Assembly (NCBI GenBank): GCA_031394595.1
Contig: JANNTZ010000325.1
Coordinates: 1 to 51,356 of the forward strand
Length of the DNA stretch: 51,356 bases
From: Acidobacteriota bacterium
GTDB lineage: Bacteria; Acidobacteriota; Polarisedimenticolia; Gp22-AA2
Direction: 5' to 3'
Position numbers and translations under genes: made by a program. Every line of letters begins with the position of its first letter. The stretch's first letter is position 1. Below, piece after piece: positions 16,036 through 22,693 of this stretch. The notes under the pieces are model-generated. The model did not search any database. It saw nothing but the letters and a program-made list of their open reading frames with translations, and was not told where the DNA came from.

Positions 16036-19000
16036 TCAGATGGGGGTGGTCGGCGAGGTGGCCGACCCGCCGGCCGTGGACGAAACCGCCACGCTTGCAG
16101 GGTTCGGGATCCCCGACACCACCAGCCGATATATCCCGGACGCCTCGACATAGCTCATCGTTCCAAACCCGACCACCGTGAGGGTCACCGACCCGGGCGG
16201 GTAGTTCGTCGTTGCCTCGACCGTCAGACGGCCATTCGTCGACTGCCAGGTGGCGCGGGTGATCGCCACGACCTCGACCACGTTGTCGATGATGTTGTCA
16301 CAGTTGTCGTCGACGCCGTTGAATACTTCCGTCGCCCCGGGGCGCACCGCCGCGACCGTGTCGTTGCAGTCGCCGCCGCACGACGTGAACCCATCGCCAT
16401 CCTGGTCGAAACCCTCGTCCCGCAGCCCGTCGCAGTCGTTGTCCAGGCCATCGCACAACTCCGGCGCACCCGGGCGGACCGACGCCCGGGTATCGTCACA
16501 GTCGGTGTCGGCCATGACCCCGTCTCCGTCCAGGTCCTGGCAGACGTCACCGATGCCGTTGGCGTCCAGATCGCGCTGGTCCGGGTTCACCAGCACGAGA
16601 CAGTTGTCGCAGGCATCGCCGCGGCCGTCACGGTCGACGTCCTGCTGGAGACCGTTGATCGACAGCGGGCAGTTGTCGACCAGGTCGAGGACCTGATCCA
16701 GGTCGGTGTCCCGCCCCTGGGGATTGCAGGGCTGGGGGATCGGGCGGACGCTCCCTGAGGTGCCGGCCCCGACGGTCCCTTCGCCACACAGGTTGGTCCC
16801 CGCAGGCATGTAGTAGAAAATCGTCCCCGGCGCCGGTGTCTGCGTGTCCTCGAACGCGGCGGTGGTCGTCTCCGGCAGCAGGCAGAGTGTGTCGAACGCC
16901 CAGGGCCGGGTGACCAGCACGACACCGCGATAAATGTTGTACACGTTGGCCTGGGGCACGGGATCCCATGCGACCCGCGTCCTGCCGGCTGCGTGCGTCA
17001 ATCTTTCGCCAACCACCTCGACGGGGCGGGTGCTCATCGAGTACAGGGCGGGGGCGCAGTCGAGCGCGTCGGGCACTCCGTCGTTGTCGTCGTCCGGATC
17101 GATGCAATCGGACAGCCCGTCACCATCGGTGTCCGGGAACCCCTCATCGACGGACAGATCGCAGTCATCATCCATGCCATTGCAGACCTCGACGCGACCC
17201 GGGTAAACCAGCGGTTCGGCGTCGTTGCAGTCGCCGGCGCACGTCGTCCAGGTGTCACCATCAAGGTCGAAGCCGTCATCGACCAGGAGATCGCAGTCAT
17301 CATCGAGGCCGTTGCAGGCCTCCGCCCGGCCCGGATAGATCAGCGGGTTGGCGTCGTTGCAGTCGCCGCCGCATGGGGTGTGCCCGTCTCCGTCGGCATC
17401 GAAGCCTTCATCCACCGCGGCATCGCAATCGTCATCGATGTTGTTGCAGATTTCGATCACCCCGGGATGGATCCCGGCATTGACGTCGTTACAGTCGCCG
17501 CCGCAGGTCGTGTAGCCATCGGCATCCCGATCGAACCCCTCGTCCACGGCGAGATCGCAGTCGTCGTCGAGCCCGTTGCAGATCTCGGTCGCTCCCGGAT
17601 GAACCGCCGGATTGGCGTCATCGCAGTCGGTGCCCGACGGGTAACCGTCCAGGTCGGCATCGGTCCCCGCATCGGTGGACGACACCCTCAGGTCGTAGGA
17701 CCCATAGATGCCCAGACCGAGGGCGTGCGTGGCGCGCACATACAGGGAGCCGCTCTGGGTCGCGGTATACAGGATGAGCGACGAGAGGTCGGTGGCGCTG
17801 CGGTCGTCGTTGCTCGCGATCACGGTCGTCCCGTTGGCGGCCAACAGGTCCAGGATCGTGTCGGACGCGCCGACGAGATTCAGCGTCTCGATCGTGTACG
17901 ACCCGCCGGCAACCGCATCGAAGACGAACAGGTCGGTGTCGGGCTCCCCGAGAAGATCGTTATTGCCGTCGGCAAAAAATGTCGCATGACGGAGCGCCGG
18001 GCCGACGCCGATCCGGGCGGCGGACGCCACCTGGCCGTTGGGCTCGAACGCGTCCAGGAAATACTCCGCTCCGAGTTCCCGGAAGACCGAGACCATCTCG
18101 GGATGCCGCCGGTTCGGGTTCGGAATGGCGGGGCTGAACCAGCCGTCCCAGAAGTCCTCCAGGCTGATGTACGCCGCCGCCGGGGTCGGCAGGTAGTCGG
18201 TCATGACACGCCAGTAGTCGCGATCGAGATCCTGGAGGAGGTCCCACGCCTCGTCCACCCCATCCGGTCCTCCGCCCGGCCCGTCGTCGGGGGATGCGGG
18301 GCCATCGACGAGATCCCAGAGGGCCGCCAGGACCGTCATCTCACTGGTGGCGCCGCGGCAGACGAATGGCTGCTGCGTCTCGGTGTTGAACGAGAACTGC
18401 AGGTTTCCGGCGCCCGCCAGCCCTGTGGTCCGCACGTACCAGGCACTCCAGGGCAGACCATGATACCGGCGCGCGGAGTTGCCCCAGTACGACGCATGTC
18501 CCTCATCGAACGCCAGCGACATGTTCTGGTTGCAGTCGCTCAGGCGGTGGGTCCCGTAGGGGCTGTTGGTCTTGGAAAAATTCTCGATGATGTAGTGCCC
18601 CATCTCGTGCAGGACCACCGTGTCGTCATAGCCCGCGTTGCGCGCCTGGACGATGGTGTTGTTGCTGTAACTGGACAGGTTGGAGTTGGCGGCATTGAAG
18701 ATCACCAGCAGCGTCGGCGCCGACGCCGGGCCGCCGCGCAGAAAATCGAAGTATTGCGCGCCGTACATGACGGAGTCATACAGATTGAACGCCTCGCCGC
18801 CCACGTTGGGGACCGCGGCCAGCGTCCCGATGTAGAGATCCTGCGTGGAGATGTGGTTGGTGAAGGTCTGCGAGCGGATCGACCAGACATCGCCCGACTG
18901 GTTGCCGGCCCGGACCTCGATTGGCACACCTGAACCCTGCTGCCGCCGCGCCAGACAGCGGACGTAGATGTCCTGGGTCCGATCGGCCACCACGCTCAGG

Positions 19001-19227
19001 ATGAAAAATCCATTGGTGTCGGTGACCCCGGCGCCAATGATCTTCGCGCCGGCGAGAACCTGCACATCGGCCTGGCGGACCGGGGTCGGCACCTCGGTCC
19101 CGAGGAAGCCGTTGGGACCGAAGGGCCGGTCGATGTAGACGAACCGCCCGGTCACGGTGTAGTTGGCCCACACCGGCAGGACCGCGCCGGCCAGCCACAC
19201 GACCGCGAGCGCCATCAGACGCTTCAT
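16036..19227 (-). CDS. Large secreted protein: gluzincin-type zinc metalloprotease domain + PPC domain + Asp/Cys-rich Ca/metal-binding repeats + Fn3-like + TSP3-like repeats
   Basis: Signal peptide MKRLMALAVVWLAGAVLPVWA. VVLHEMGH followed by AFDEGHA. PPC-like DTDLFVF..SYTIET..DTILDL...SNDD. Six DxDxDG..DCxD...PG..E.CNG.DD.CD repeats. DNCP/DACDNC TSP3-like motifs. Confidence 0.8.
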   Translation of the reverse strand: MKRLMALAVVWLAGAVLPVWANYTVTGRFVYIDRPFGPNGFLGTEVPTPVRQADVQVLAGAKIIGAGVTDTNGFFILSVVADRTQDIYVRCLARRQQGSGVPIEVRAGNQSGDVWSIRSQTFTNHISTQDLYIGTLAAVPNVGGEAFNLYDSVMYGAQYFDFLRGGPASAPTLLVIFNAANSNLSSYSNNTIVQARNAGYDDTVVLHEMGHYIIENFSKTNSPYGTHRLSDCNQNMSLAFDEGHASYWGNSARRYHGLPWSAWYVRTTGLAGAGNLQFSFNTETQQPFVCRGATSEMTVLAALWDLVDGPASPDDGPGGGPDGVDEAWDLLQDLDRDYWRVMTDYLPTPAAAYISLEDFWDGWFSPAIPNPNRRHPEMVSVFRELGAEYFLDAFEPNGQVASAARIGVGPALRHATFFADGNNDLLGEPDTDLFVFDAVAGGSYTIETLNLVGASDTILDLLAANGTTVIASNDDRSATDLSSLILYTATQSGSLYVRATHALGLGIYGSYDLRVSSTDAGTDADLDGYPSGTDCDDANPAVHPGATEICNGLDDDCDLAVDEGFDRDADGYTTCGGDCNDVNAGIHPGVIEICNNIDDDCDAAVDEGFDADGDGHTPCGGDCNDANPLIYPGRAEACNGLDDDCDLLVDDGFDLDGDTWTTCAGDCNDAEPLVYPGRVEVCNGMDDDCDLSVDEGFPDTDGDGLSDCIDPDDDNDGVPDALDCAPALYSMSTRPVEVVGERLTHAAGRTRVAWDPVPQANVYNIYRGVVLVTRPWAFDTLCLLPETTTAAFEDTQTPAPGTIFYYMPAGTNLCGEGTVGAGTSGSVRPIPQPCNPQGRDTDLDQVLDLVDNCPLSINGLQQDVDRDGRGDACDNCLVLVNPDQRDLDANGIGDVCQDLDGDGVMADTDCDDTRASVRPGAPELCDGLDNDCDGLRDEGFDQDGDGFTSCGGDCNDTVAAVRPGATEVFNGVDDNCDNIIDNVVEVVAITRATWQSTNGRLTVEATTNYPPGSVTLTVVGFGTMSYVEASGIYRLVVSGIPNPASVAVSSTAGGSATSPTTPI
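16282..16536 (-). repeat. Two further MopE-like repeats near the C-terminus
   Basis: DLDGDG..DCDD..RPGAPELCDGLDNDCD..DEGF and DQDGDGF..DCND..RPGATEVFNGVDDNCD. Confidence 0.8.
17137..17661 (-). repeat. Four tandem ~44-codon MopE-like (putative metal-binding motif) repeats inside the large secreted protein
   Basis: DADLDGY..DCDD..HPGATEICNGLDDDCD..DEGF and three similar units. Confidence 0.85.
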
Positions 19228-19763
19228 CGCGGGCCGTCCTCGATCGGCACCGCCATGACTTCCCAGGCCCCGACGTGGTGCCTTCCCTCCGCCATGCCGC
19301 CGGCGCGCAGCAGGGTCGCCTGGCGCGTCTGGATGATGTCCCCGTCGCCGATCCGGTAGGTCGCCTCCACCTGCACGGCGTGGGTTCCCGTCTGGCGGGC
19401 GTAGAGCATCGTCCCCCACTGTCGGCGCGCGCCGCCCGGCAGGGCGAAGGGCCGGACCGGCAGTGGGTCATCGGAGGTCTGCACACCCTCGGGGAGGACC
19501 AGCTTGAGGGTCACATCCCGCACTTCGGGGCCGGCGTCGATCTCGATCGTCAGGCGCGCCGCGACCCCGCTGTTCCGGACGCGCGAGGGTATCGTCTCAA
19601 GGCGAAGATCGATGCCGAGGGGTGGCATCGGCTCGACAGTGGCACGACCGGAGGGTCCGGCGGGTTGGTCAGCGGCCGGACGGAGCCCAGCGACGGGGGC
19701 AGGCTGGATGACAGCCCCCACCAGCAAGATGCCCAAGATCGCGAGCCGTGGTGCCATGTGCAT
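19224..19763 (-). CDS. Exported hypothetical protein translationally coupled to the metalloprotease gene
   Basis: Signal-peptide-like N-terminus and a beta-rich body. Its TGA overlaps the downstream ATG (ATGA at 19227-19224). Confidence 0.75.
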   Translation of the reverse strand: MHMAPRLAILGILLVGAVIQPAPVAGLRPAADQPAGPSGRATVEPMPPLGIDLRLETIPSRVRNSGVAARLTIEIDAGPEVRDVTLKLVLPEGVQTSDDPLPVRPFALPGGARRQWGTMLYARQTGTHAVQVEATYRIGDGDIIQTRQATLLRAGGMAEGRHHVGAWEVMAVPIEDGPR

Positions 19764-19895
19764 CAGGCGGCATCGCCTCGGAGAACCGGATCGATGGCTC
19801 AGGACTGCCCTGACTCCAGCGCGAAGTCAAATCCCTTAGTACGATGCGCCCCCCTTAAAGTCAAGTAGAATTGACCCTTGCTGCCATCGTGCCCC

Positions 19896-19923
19896 TTGAC
19901 CAGGGCCGGTTTCACCGTACACT
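19896..19923 (+). promoter_or_regulatory. sigma70 promoter for the small ORF plus IscS-like gene
   Basis: TTGACC, 16 bp spacer, TACACT. Confidence 0.55.
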
Positions 19924-19954: not shown

Positions 19955-20206
19955 ATGAGGGTTCTTCAGTTTCCGCGTCGGCAAGGCCACGCCGCCACGG
20001 CCCTCGGCACCCTCCGTACGATCCTGGAAGACTGCCGGTCAGAACAGCACCGCATCCGGGACGAAGGGGTTCGCCTGAGGACGGCGGTGGCCCGGCTCCG
20101 CCGGCAGGCCCAACAGGTCAGCCGGACACAGGCGGAACTGACACGGGAAGTCGGCCGGCTGCGTCGCTGCGCACGCACCTTCCTCCTCCCTTCCACCGAC
20201 CGCTGA
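19955..20206 (+). CDS. Small coiled-coil hypothetical protein (83 aa)
   Basis: ATG 19955 after AAAGGG. MRVLQFPRR... then a heptad-like helix. Ends 11 bp before the IscS-like gene, downstream of a clear promoter. Confidence 0.55.
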   Translation: MRVLQFPRRQGHAATALGTLRTILEDCRSEQHRIRDEGVRLRTAVARLRRQAQQVSRTQAELTREVGRLRRCARTFLLPSTDR

Positions 20207-20217
20207 TCCACCACAAC

Positions 20218-21498
20218 ATGCGCCGGATCAATGCCGATCACGCCTCCACCACGCCGATCGACCGGCGGGTGCGTGAGGCGATGCTCCCCCACCTCGGAGC
20301 GGACCAGGGAAATCCCTCCAGCCTGCACGGCCGGGGCGCCGCGGCGCGGGTTGCGGTCGACGAGGCGCGACACGCGGTGGCGTCCCTGCTCGGCTGTCCC
20401 GACGACGAGATCCTGTTCACCGGCTCGGCCACCGAGGCCAACAACCTGGCGGTGAAGGGGGTCGCGCTGGCCTGCCCGCAGGGCGGTCGGCTGGTGGCGG
20501 CCTCGACCGAACACCTGTCAATCCTGCACCCGCTTCGGAGTCTTGCCGGCGCGGGATACGAGGTCGTCCTCCTGCCGGTGGATCGCCATGGCCTTCTCGA
20601 CCCGGCGGTCGTTGACCAGGCCCTGGCGCCGGGGGCCGCTCTGATCTCGGTCGCCCATGCCAGCGCCGAGATCGGGACGCTGCAGCCAATCGCGGCGATC
20701 TCCCGGGTGGCACGGGCCCGGGCTGTCCCGCTCCATGTCGATGCGACCGCCTCCGCCTGCCATGTGGCACTGCCGGCGGACGCGGCGGATCTCCTGACCA
20801 TCGCGCCGCATTTGTTCTATGGTCCGCTCGGCACGGCTGCCCTTCGGGTGCGTTCCGGGGTCTCCATCCGGCCGCTCATCGAAGGCGGGACCCAGGAAGC
20901 GGGCCTGCGCCCTGGATCCGAGGCCGTCGGATTGCTGGCCGGTTTCGGAGTGGCGGCGGGGTTGCTGCTCGCGGAGCGGGGCCGGCGAGCGGCCCGCGCC
21001 TCCCGGCTCGCGCGGCGGTTCCGTCGCGCCCTCGCCGGTCGCCTCGACCGCCTGACCTTCACCGGGCACCCACGGCAACGAATCCCGGGCCACGTCAGTC
21101 TCTGCGCCGCCGGCGTCGAGGCCGAGGCGGTCCTCGTCGCCCTCGACGTCGAGGGGATCGAGGCAGCGAGCGGTTCGCCGTGCACGACCCTGGCGCGTCG
21201 TACCTCGCACGTCCTGGAGGCGATCGGGACGGATCCGGTCCTGGCACGCGGAGCGCTGACGTTCATGTTCGGGGAAGACAGCGACGAGAGTGACCCGGCC
21301 ATTCTCGCCCGGGCGCTCACTGCCATTGTCCAGCGGCTGCGCCGCATGGCTCCGGACGTGGATCGTCCCGATGGACCGTCGCGTCCCAGGAAGGCGGTCA
21401 GGCCTGCGGTTCGTCGAGCGAGTCGAGGACGACGCCGGTCGGGATCTTCGGGTGAAAGTAGGTCGTCTTCTGCGGCAGGCGCAGGCCGCCGCGCGTGA
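20218..21498 (+). CDS. IscS/NifS-like class V PLP-fold protein lacking the Schiff-base Lys (degenerate cysteine desulfurase)
   Basis: DHASTTP, GNPSS.HG.G, FTGSATEANN, EH, EIGTLQPI, SGSPCT (Cys kept). APHLFYGPLG stands where SxHKxYGPKG is expected. Confidence 0.85.
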   Translation: MRRINADHASTTPIDRRVREAMLPHLGADQGNPSSLHGRGAAARVAVDEARHAVASLLGCPDDEILFTGSATEANNLAVKGVALACPQGGRLVAASTEHLSILHPLRSLAGAGYEVVLLPVDRHGLLDPAVVDQALAPGAALISVAHASAEIGTLQPIAAISRVARARAVPLHVDATASACHVALPADAADLLTIAPHLFYGPLGTAALRVRSGVSIRPLIEGGTQEAGLRPGSEAVGLLAGFGVAAGLLLAERGRRAARASRLARRFRRALAGRLDRLTFTGHPRQRIPGHVSLCAAGVEAEAVLVALDVEGIEAASGSPCTTLARRTSHVLEAIGTDPVLARGALTFMFGEDSDESDPAILARALTAIVQRLRRMAPDVDRPDGPSRPRKAVRPAVRRASRGRRRSGSSGESRSSSAAGAGRRA

Positions 21499-22693
21499 CC
21501 TCGATCACGCGGGCGATCGGGGTGGGATTCATCAGGATCGCGACGTCGGTTCCGGGAAGGGTGGCGCGGACCGACCACTCCTGATCGTCCTTGACGTACT
21601 CCAGGTGATCCTGCCGGGCCTGTGACTCGAGGCTGATCCCGAGGATCCGCTCGAGCACGATCCGGTGCAGCAGGACGACGTCCAGCCGGCGGAGCGGTGC
21701 CGGGACTGCCTGGAGGCGCGGGTCGTCGAGCCCGGCCCCTTCCTTCCAGGACGCCAGGTGAAACCCGCCCACGCCGCGGACCGCCAGACCGAACACTCCG
21801 ACCCTCTCCCCGCGGTTACCGACCCGATCGCGCAGATCGGCGGCGCTGGCGACCGGTTCCAGTTCGAACAGATCCCCCAGCGCGCGCAGGAACCGCCCGC
21901 CGTCAAACTCCGGCAGTCCCTTCACGAGACGGTGAATCGGCAGGATTCGCAGCCCGGGATCCTCGAGGCTGCAGAAGTACCCCAGCACATGTTCGGCGTC
22001 GTTCCGCCCGGCGGCCCGCCGCTCATCGCGGTAGGCCAGCGCCGATTCGTAACGGTGATGGCCGTCGGCGATGAGCGCCCACTCCGGCCCCAGCCGGCGG
22101 ACCATCGCCTCGATCGTGTCCTTTGCCTCGACGCGGACCACACGCAGACCACCGCCCTGCACCTCGGCCTCGGCCCAGAGGGGCGCGGTCCGGCAGGCTT
22201 CCGCCACCAGCCGCGCCACGGTCCCACCGGGGTCCGGGTGGAGGAAGAAAACCGGGCTGAGGTGGGTGCGGGTCGCGGCCAGAAGCCGCCGTCGATCCTC
22301 ACGCGGGCGATCGAGCGTGCGCTCGTGCGGGAGGACAAGCCCGGTCCCGAAGTCCTCGAGGCGCAGTCGGGCAAAAAAGCCCCGGCGCACGACGGTGCCG
22401 CCGCCCGTCCCGCCAAAGGTCTGCTCGCAGGCATAGAGCGCGGGGCTGCCATCCCGGACGAGCGTGCCTTCGCGGATCCACTCCTGCAGCCCCTGCCGGG
22501 CAGCCACGTACGGATCGCCGCCGGCCGCAGCACGCGGCAGATCGAGGTGGACAATGTTGCGAGGGTGCAGCGCCCCGAGGGCGGTCCGGCCGGCTTCGTC
22601 CAGCACATCGTACGGCGGAGCGATCAGACGGTCTATCCGGGACCTGAGATCGGGCCGCCAGGCCAGGGCTCGGAAGGGCGAGAGCGCCGGCAC
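21398..22693 (-). CDS. DUF1015 family protein
   Basis: PFRAL..APPYDV, LPHERT, LIADGHHRYE, LPQKTTYFHPK are characteristic of DUF1015. Confidence 0.88.
   Translation of the reverse strand: MPALSPFRALAWRPDLRSRIDRLIAPPYDVLDEAGRTALGALHPRNIVHLDLPRAAAGGDPYVAARQGLQEWIREGTLVRDGSPALYACEQTFGGTGGGTVVRRGFFARLRLEDFGTGLVLPHERTLDRPREDRRRLLAATRTHLSPVFFLHPDPGGTVARLVAEACRTAPLWAEAEVQGGGLRVVRVEAKDTIEAMVRRLGPEWALIADGHHRYESALAYRDERRAAGRNDAEHVLGYFCSLEDPGLRILPIHRLVKGLPEFDGGRFLRALGDLFELEPVASAADLRDRVGNRGERVGVFGLAVRGVGGFHLASWKEGAGLDDPRLQAVPAPLRRLDVVLLHRIVLERILGISLESQARQDHLEYVKDDQEWSVRATLPGTDVAILMNPTPIARVIEVTRGGLRLPQKTTYFHPKIPTGVVLDSLDEPQA

Follow-up and report, generated by a model that had tools for sequence, protein, structure and literature searches.

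An open reading frame (ORF) at positions 20218–21498 of contig JANNTZ010000325.1 (assembly GCA_031394595.1, an Acidobacteriota bacterium), a stretch of 51,356 nucleotides referred to below as the window, encodes a homologue of the cysteine desulfurases IscS and NifS. It lacks the lysine that forms the Schiff base with pyridoxal 5'-phosphate (PLP) as well as the arginine that holds the substrate carboxylate, and it keeps the loop cysteine. From sequence comparison, and with moderate confidence, we read this protein as a non-catalytic IscS-type partner, or hub, in persulfide transfer or in the assembly of iron-sulfur (Fe-S) clusters, of the type represented by IscS of Archaeoglobus fulgidus. A bacterial IscS-fold protein acting as carrier or scaffold had been suggested from the DNA letters alone (the original prediction). 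The suggestion is now supported by the absence of Lys and Arg from all family sequences (0/120), by a signature common with A. fulgidus IscS, and by relatives in operons with IscU, TusA, DsrE-like or ThiI genes. The window gene would thus be a bacterial variant of the barely studied, inactive A. fulgidus type of IscS, and its main value may be as an entry to a large clade of such homologues without the Schiff-base Lys (Lys-less below).

The gene and its diagnostic codons, with the corresponding E. coli IscS positions, are:

20218–21498, + strand: Lys-less, Arg-less homologue of type-I cysteine desulfurases (IscS/NifS fold), 426 aa, ATG start, Pfam Aminotran_5
20512–20514, + strand: His99 in TEH, the PLP ring-stacking His (IscS H104), kept
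20662–20667, + strand: Ser149-Ala150 in ASAE, in place of IscS N154/N155 (NNE(I/V)G motif)
20740–20751, + strand: motif DATA, from Asp175 (IscS D180, kept) to Ala178 (IscS Q183, lost)
20812–20814, + strand: Leu199, codon TTG, in APHLFYGPLG, at the position of the PLP Schiff-base Lys (IscS K206)
21181–21183, + strand: Cys322 in SGSPCT, the persulfide-carrying loop Cys (IscS C328), kept
21259–21261, + strand: Thr348, codon ACG, in GALTFMFG, at the position of the substrate-carboxylate Arg (IscS R354)

These positions were assigned from an alignment of E. coli K-12 IscS (the translation of b2530) with the window protein and 119 homologues, and the codons were also read directly. The original prediction had named all of them: Leu (TTG, codon 199) at K206, Thr (codon 348, in ALTFMFG) at R354, DATA for DAVQ and SAE for NNE, each of which was right by both alignment and codon reading, and the retained Cys322 and PLP-stacking EH (His99), which the alignment bears out. 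Further cofactor contacts are also present. IscS H205 corresponds to His198 and T76 to Thr72, both kept, while T243 is conservatively replaced by Ser234. An HMMER alignment to the best-matching solved structures gave identical substitutions in the window protein. The residues for PLP chemistry on cysteine (the Lys that serves as Schiff base and general base, the carboxylate Arg, Gln183 and Asn155) are therefore gone. What is conserved is Cys322, the fold with its dimer-type core, and most of the contacts that hold the cofactor non-covalently (His99, Asp175, Thr72, His198 and Ser/Thr234).

A possible replacement for the missing Lys was also considered and rejected, the sole extra near-invariant Lys of the family (position 328, in the Cys loop) being Arg in the window protein. 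The PDB entries that match best by sequence (9wep, 9wer, 9wew, 9wf8, 9wfb, 9wfe and 9wfy) are all variants of a single cysteine desulfurase of 406 aa. Of these, 9wfy differs from 9wep by K to L, R to V, Q to P and N to R, among others, at precisely those positions that are naturally changed in the window protein. A literature search on the codes 9wep–9wfy returned nothing relevant.

The product matches Pfam Aminotran_5 with an E-value of 2e-45. Among the NCBIfam models it matches NifS, DndA and IscS best, and all three scores fall far under the curated equivalog cut-offs (304 bits vs 530.75 for NifS, 262 vs 480 for DndA and 240 vs 643 for IscS). An AlphaFold2 model made from the family alignment has a predicted local distance difference test score (pLDDT) of 89 overall and ≈97 in the core. 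The score drops to 67 in the block around Cys322 (residues 321–330), in line with a mobile loop. Human NFS1, A. fulgidus IscS and E. coli IscS were the best Foldseek matches to this model, with NifS also found, and the top structures gave template modelling (TM) scores of 0.83–0.96 at root-mean-square deviations (rmsd) of 1.5–2.0 Å. The protein has the type-I class-V aminotransferase fold and the mobile-loop Cys (SGSxC), and it fails as a type-I desulfurase enzyme at K206, R354, Gln183, Asn155 and the NCBIfam cut-offs. In a related strain, seen in two public runs, TTG replaces the ATG at 20218; TTG is a valid start codon and this fits the annotated start.

The loss is not private to this genome. 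A search of 5.8 billion protein clusters gave a family of ≈120 cluster representatives with 48–76% identity, whose named members belong mostly to Candidatus Polarisedimenticolia and otherwise to Acidobacteriota, the most distant being from Chloroflexota. Among the 120 sequences position 206 is never Lys (0/120); the residues listed are L in 105, Q in 7, T in 3, P in 2, A in 1 and S in 1. Position 354 is likewise never Arg (0/120), with T in 86, V in 14, S in 7, M in 4, G in 3 and L in 3 listed. Position 183 is A, L, V or M, and Q is found in only 5 of 120. The family alignment retains Cys328 and Asp180 in 120/120, H104 in 119/120 and H205 in 109/120. Over a 379-codon core, five pairwise comparisons gave ratios of nonsynonymous to synonymous substitution rates (dN/dS) of 0.25–0.43, at a dS of 0.8–1.3 that is near saturation. 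The core is under purifying selection. This was the homologue check that the original prediction had asked for, and its fear that close orthologs might retain Lys and Arg proved groundless, as 0/120 retain either.

The sequence itself is reproducible. Contigs spanning the gene with 0 and 1 differences were present in two independent freshwater-sediment metagenomes, and a related strain differs by 15 substitutions and 0 indels. The IscS-like ORF is uninterrupted at every family locus. A run labelled RNA-Seq yielded contigs on the small ORF upstream of the gene (described below) and on part of the IscS-like gene, which is weak evidence of transcription, as the run may include DNA. Taken with the core dN/dS and the absence of Lys and Arg from the 120 clusters, the recurrence in metagenomes speaks against both strain-specific decay and sequencing error. 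A DNA pattern specific for the motif recovered six family members, from Polarisedimenticolia, other Acidobacteriota and one assembly labelled Candidatus Cryosericum. The last of these (L182, 822–1964) belongs to the window subfamily, with 56% identity, the HL..T signature and an adjoining DUF1015 gene; its assembly is assigned to another phylum, which points to misbinning or horizontal transfer.

Lys-less homologues extend well beyond this family. We examined the 150 best matches of an exhaustive HMMER search against 1.84 billion representatives (50% clustering). Among these best 150, 26 lack K206; nearly all 26 also lack R354, and C328 and D180 are present in all of them. Those that carry a name are from Polarisedimenticolia, Nitrospirae, Chloroflexota and a vent bacterium. 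A neighbour-joining tree calculated after removal of the diagnostic columns places 19 of the 26 in two subclades that adjoin each other, and the window family belongs to one of them. The family sits inside a large bacterial Lys-less block, beside L014 (ThiI and TusA), a Rokubacteria type (TusA) and the Nitrospirae type (Rrf2-IscU-TusA). The archaeal 'ND' group, which is nearest to A. fulgidus IscS2, is not adjacent to this block, and a single origin of the whole Lys-less class is therefore not established. The genes found around Lys-less members were:

Chloroflexota (L004, L005): TusA and Fpg
BMS3Abin14 (L009, L010): DsrE-like and TusA
Nitrospirae type (L013): Rrf2 upstream; IscU, TusA and a DsrE fragment downstream
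L014, the nearest outgroup of the window family: ThiI and TusA

Protein-pattern scans of species genomes gave, among the matches listed, relatives at ≤49% identity only, and a species-genome search for relatives of the L014 TusA found none. From two samples of species-representative genomes we then compiled, among the matches listed, at least 80 Lys-less and 84 canonical IscS homologues. ORFs were called, the homologues were classed by their residues, and neighbours were counted if they lay on the same strand within 2.5 kb. Retained residues and neighbours, with nominal Fisher p for the latter, were:

R354 retained: Lys-less 0/80, canonical 83/84
C328 and D180 retained: Lys-less 80/80, canonical 84/84
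TusA neighbour: Lys-less 50/80, canonical 1/84, p 1e-19
DsrE-like neighbour: Lys-less 12/80, canonical 0/84, p 1e-4
IscU neighbour: Lys-less 58/80, canonical 33/84, p 2e-5
Rrf2 neighbour: Lys-less 11/80, canonical 25/84, p 0.015
ThiI neighbour: Lys-less 0/80, canonical 9/84, p 0.003

The lone canonical gene with a TusA neighbour adjoins a Lys-less paralog. The partners appear intact: IscU beside Lys-less genes keeps C37, D39, C63, K103, H105 and C106 in 59/59, and TusA keeps its Cys-Pro in 52/52. The Lys-less genes come from Nitrospirota, Desulfobacterota/Syntrophia, Chloroflexota, Actinomycetota, Rokubacteria, Acidobacteriota, Elusimicrobiota, WOR-3, Planctomycetota, Bathyarchaeia, Thermoplasmatota and others. 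Position 206 is highly variable across the clade (Q, D, R, S, A, P, N, L and more). Relatives in operons with intact IscU, TusA, DsrE-like or ThiI genes fit a carrier or scaffold role.

Some loci of the wider class deserve separate mention. A canonical desulfurase and a degenerate paralog occur at one locus in L099 (8625–10996), L132 (9797–12522) and L139 (9995–17053); the tandem copy of L099 keeps K206 and has R354 changed to V, and could be an intermediate state. In L011 (4190–7194) and L012 the Lys-less gene overlaps the end of a NuoF-like (Complex1_51K) gene, with a MogA/MoaB-like gene on the 5' side and a radical SAM gene on the 3' side. This context is unlike the usual one of IscU and TusA, and hints at a link to the Mo-cofactor or another cofactor.

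If these comparisons are taken together, the window protein would be unable to make persulfide from cysteine. Cys322, on its flexible loop, might instead take up sulfane sulfur from a carrier of the TusA/DsrE type or from a sulfide-derived species and pass it on, or alternatively might be supplied to IscU as a cluster ligand. Either way the protein would be the docking hub of a cysteine-independent route for sulfur transfer or Fe-S assembly in an anaerobic sediment bacterium. It probably retains a B6 vitamer, judging from its conserved contacts and by analogy with A. fulgidus IscS; pyridoxamine 5'-phosphate (PMP) or PLP would be held non-covalently as a structural cofactor, as in that protein. 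His198, Thr72 and Ser/Thr234 are more fully retained in the window protein than in A. fulgidus IscS. In Polarisedimenticolia the gene would have moved away from iscU and tusA and come to be transcribed with a small basic helical protein.

A broader proposal, which we put forward only tentatively, is that Lys-less IscS-like proteins, the window protein among them, serve as hub in a cysteine-independent route of sulfur delivery that is widespread in anaerobic bacteria and archaea. Sulfane sulfur would be loaded onto the loop Cys by TusA, in many cases with the help of a DsrE-like protein, and the loop would deliver it to IscU (in some lineages also to ThiI) for the synthesis of Fe-S clusters and thionucleosides.

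Several observations weigh against a sulfur-relay role for the window protein. IscU, TusA, DsrE, ThiI and Rrf2 are absent from the 51-kb window and from beside every sampled subfamily member. A Pfam scan of 34 window ORFs gave no Fe-S or sulfur-relay genes, and tblastn and phmmer searches of the window with Aminotran_5, TusA, DsrE, IscU, ThiI, Rrf2, NuoF-like and MogA seeds returned only the IscS-like gene itself. The sulfur-relay partners of the window protein are thus extrapolated from other phyla. The family does not conserve the known TusA contacts of E. coli IscS (W45, R220 and R237), and in NifS-like proteins their conservation would not be expected. The core dN/dS exceeds the values usual for housekeeping enzymes, though with dS near saturation. 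Finally, the genomes of the neighbour comparison are related and the sample consists of best matches to a Lys-less query, so that the Fisher p-values overstate independence; the TusA contrast (50/80 vs 1/84) is nevertheless large despite this kinship. Contact residues were also tried as a clue to partners, and R55, E309 and E311 are conserved in the family, but they are so in canonical enzymes too and are uninformative.

Among the alternatives to a non-catalytic hub, the one that survives best, though we regard it as unlikely, is a regulatory pseudoenzyme that would form heterodimers with, or titrate, a canonical IscS, NifS or SufS-type desulfurase encoded elsewhere and so modulate or redirect sulfur delivery. 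Type-I desulfurases are obligate dimers whose active site is built by both subunits. Lys-less and canonical paralogs do occur together in L132 and L139, the tandem pair of L099 includes an R354-less copy, and the window gene has no adjacent acceptor gene. In the DNA fetched, however, most Lys-less genes are the sole desulfurase homologue of their iscU/tusA operon, and the window holds no canonical type-I paralog. The A. fulgidus protein, moreover, forms homodimeric (IscS-IscU)2 complexes (PMC8918507).

Less probable still is an enzyme with a different chemistry, in which PMP or PLP bound tightly without a Schiff-base Lys would act on a substrate other than an alpha-amino acid. It might move sulfur onto Cys322 from a compound of the keto or thio kind, or work like the PMP-dependent sugar dehydratases ColD and E1. 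The conserved ring- and phosphate-binding residues (H99, D175, T72, H198 and S/T234) would suit such an enzyme, as would the PMP bound by A. fulgidus IscS, and Lys-less PMP enzymes in the same fold class are also without the carboxylate Arg. But the Leu at 206 is inert and the position varies across the Lys-less clade, so there is no consistent replacement base, and Q183 and N155 are lost too. The operon partners of the relatives are sulfur-relay and scaffold proteins, not metabolic enzymes.

The last two alternatives concern the 3' end of the gene, where the following features lie:

21355–21498, + strand: low-complexity, lineage-specific C-terminal extension of the IscS-like protein, aa 380–426 (47 residues)
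21398–22693, − strand: convergent DUF1015 gene, Pfam DUF1015, E 2e-71

The overlap between them is 101 bases (21398–21498), and the last 33 codons of the tail are antisense to the 3' end of DUF1015. Most homologues end at ≈385 aa, after '...RLRxLSPL', and an extension of ≈45 extra codons is common only to the window protein and its three closest relatives, P0002–P0004 (425–443 aa). Compared with L189, the closest relative with DNA, the tail has a dN/dS of 1.3, two indels and a low dS, which is what would be expected if only the gene on the opposite strand were constrained. Its AlphaFold2 pLDDT is 42–54. The tail is a neutral, disordered read-through extension with a single origin in the subclade and no sign of a dying gene. 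The caveat attached to the original prediction holds in part: the long low-complexity tail does overlap the opposite gene, whereas early decay finds no support in the core.

DUF1015 has been proposed to be a serine kinase, SerBK (bioRxiv 10.1101/2024.10.14.618325), and a function of the IscS-like protein in phosphoserine or serine metabolism instead of sulfur relay could be imagined, but we find it very improbable. In 11/11 family loci with flanking sequence the DUF1015 gene meets or overlaps the IscS-like gene at its 3' end, and elsewhere DUF1015 genes are linked to serC, which likewise encodes a class-V aminotransferase fold. The IscS-like and DUF1015 genes converge, however, which rules out co-transcription, and ≈15 kb is collinear across the class, for which reason we read the adjacency as shared descent. 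None of the other Lys-less lineages sampled, all outside the family, adjoins DUF1015 (0 cases), and a SerC-like transaminase is impossible without the PLP Lys and the carboxylate Arg. We treat the DUF1015 gene as a syntenic neighbour.

That the gene is decaying (an incipient pseudogene), or is a sequencing or assembly artefact, is hardly credible and for the core effectively refuted: it could appeal to the tail (low-complexity, overlapping, dN/dS ≈1.3, indels) and to the base composition of the gene, whose G+C content at third codon positions (GC3, 0.80) is the lowest of the window genes and at second positions (GC2, 0.59) among the highest, but it is contradicted by the same substitutions in all 120 clusters at 48–76% identity, the ORFs intact at every locus, the core dN/dS, the recurrence in two metagenomes, a conserved promoter-like site and the confident AlphaFold2 model.

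Upstream of the IscS-like gene lie the promoter-like site and the small ORF:

19896–19923, + strand: sigma-70-like promoter candidate TTGACC-N16-TACACT (1 site found vs 0.1 expected)
19955–20206, + strand: small Arg-rich helical ORF, 83 aa from ATG (an alternative listed start is TTG at 19871)

The stop of the small ORF is 11 bases ahead of the IscS-like start. Homologues of it stand directly upstream of the IscS-like gene in six other loci (L189, L001/L002, L175, L183 and L185), and none was detected upstream of the gene in L003 or L006/L007. It matches no Pfam family and its Cys is not conserved. In L189 and L185 the motif TTGACN-N16-TACACT also occurs 5' of the small ORF. L003 is without the small ORF, and there the same motif precedes the IscS-like gene directly, at −54; in L178 a variant with TAGACT is found at this offset. 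The placement of the motif across loci argues for a two-gene transcription unit, and the small ORF is probably co-transcribed with the IscS-like gene. That the small basic protein is a candidate binding partner of the IscS-like protein is pure speculation.

Gene order is collinear in all family loci fetched (the window, L001–L003, L006, L007 and L189, together with two records without DNA). It runs from a MopE-repeat protein (−) and a small ORF (−) through an optional ≈85-aa ORF (+) and the IscS-like gene (+) to DUF1015 (−), an ≈220-aa ORF (−) and a DsbA-like gene (+), with a sensor kinase before the DsbA-like gene in some loci. The MopE-repeat gene of the window (16036–19419, − strand), syntenic 5' of the IscS-like gene in all family loci, encodes a protein of 1127 aa that contains six Cu-binding MopE motifs as well as a PPC domain. 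The Pfam scan of the 34 window ORFs (30 other likely genes) otherwise showed a housekeeping set including mreBCD, pbp2, rodA and the genes for RNase G and Y, MutS2, PabB/PabC-like proteins, an MqnC-like radical SAM protein and a class V (archaeal-type) fructose-1,6-bisphosphatase/aldolase (1481–2671, + strand; Pfam FBPase_3, E 6e-159). An Rfam scan of the full window gave 0 matches, and hence no riboswitch upstream of the IscS-like gene.

At issue is how strict anaerobes can supply sulfur to Fe-S clusters and thio-cofactors in the absence of cysteine desulfurase activity. A design without Lys and Arg and with the Cys retained, so far an archaeal oddity, is here conserved under selection in a bacterial class. 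The same design is found in at least 80 species-level genomes from many phyla, near intact IscU, and with an adjacency to TusA and DsrE-like genes that is almost unique among IscS homologues. Many 'cysteine desulfurase' annotations in metagenome-assembled genomes therefore cannot be desulfurases, and the Lys-less operons offer concrete, clonable material for asking whether TusA and DsrE feed an IscS-like hub. If the proposed route is real, A. fulgidus IscS would be the first glimpse of a major pathway and no exception, and the Polarisedimenticolia form, with an Arg-rich helical partner replacing the adjacent IscU and TusA, would be a specialised offshoot. We found no description of a bacterial Lys-less IscS or of its TusA/DsrE linkage in the literature, which is weak evidence of novelty as most subscription journals lie outside the coverage.

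Compared with known systems, the window protein shares with canonical IscS, NifS and human NFS1 the fold, the domain order, the SGSxC loop, the GGxQExGxRxGT motif and the PLP-ring His and Asp. The partner set of its relatives is also the canonical one (IscU, TusA, ThiI and an Rrf2/IscR-like regulator). It differs from the canonical type-I desulfurases in the loss of K206, R354, Q183 and N154/N155 and in its NCBIfam scores below the cut-offs. Many of the sampled Lys-less loci resemble the two-gene unit of the MIS ('minimal ISC') system, MisS-MisU, which is an IscS-like and IscU-like pair of anaerobes without chaperones or carriers (Garcia et al., 2022, via PMC13066941 and PMC12192291). MisS is described there as a cysteine desulfurase, which, unlike MisS as so described, the Lys-less proteins cannot be.

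The closest parallels are archaeal. IscS1 of Methanosarcina acetivorans is reported to be without the catalytic Lys and has been proposed to act like A. fulgidus IscS (PMC7585200); it is encoded with IscU1, and the insolubility of the recombinant protein prevented its characterisation. A. fulgidus IscS, the one inactive IscS so far characterised, is reported to have no desulfurase activity and to bind PMP, as its D199K variant still does. It is further reported to contribute a Cys ligand to the IscU-bound [2Fe-2S] cluster, and sulfide was suggested to be the source of the sulfur (PMC8918507). An inactive, PMP-binding protein that donates a Cys ligand is also how it is presented in PMC7585200, and a 2024 preprint terms the A. 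fulgidus proteins 'exceptional' (10.1101/2024.03.20.586028). The original prediction had cited this protein as inactive, with Asp for Lys and a Cys ligand role; the Asp is confirmed by our alignment and the rest by these two reports.

A. fulgidus IscS2 (PDB 4hvk, 4eb5 and 4eb7; D199K, 4r5f) and the window protein have the same fold, both without the C-terminal extension of IscS. Foldseek superimposed the window model on it with a TM score of 0.83 (query-normalised) or 0.95 (target-normalised), at 1.5–1.7 Å rmsd and 38% identity. Aligned with an archaeal Lys-less protein, IscS2 (4eb5) carries D in place of K206, N in place of H205, A in place of Q183 and L in place of R354, and it keeps the Cys. 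Both it and the window protein have lost the Schiff-base Lys, the substrate Arg and Gln183, and both keep His104, Asp180 and the loop Cys, so that the window protein combines the loss of K206 and R354 with the retention of C328, D180 and H104. IscS2 differs in being archaeal, in having Asp at 206 and Asn at 205, and in being encoded beside iscU, an adjacency seen neither for the window gene nor for any sampled subfamily locus. The window protein is bacterial, has Leu at 206 with His205 kept (HL), has no adjacent iscU or tusA, and comes with a small upstream ORF and a disordered 47-aa tail. The signature of IscS2 (K to D, R to L and Q to A), which affects the same positions, argues for a family relationship between the two proteins and not for mere resemblance.

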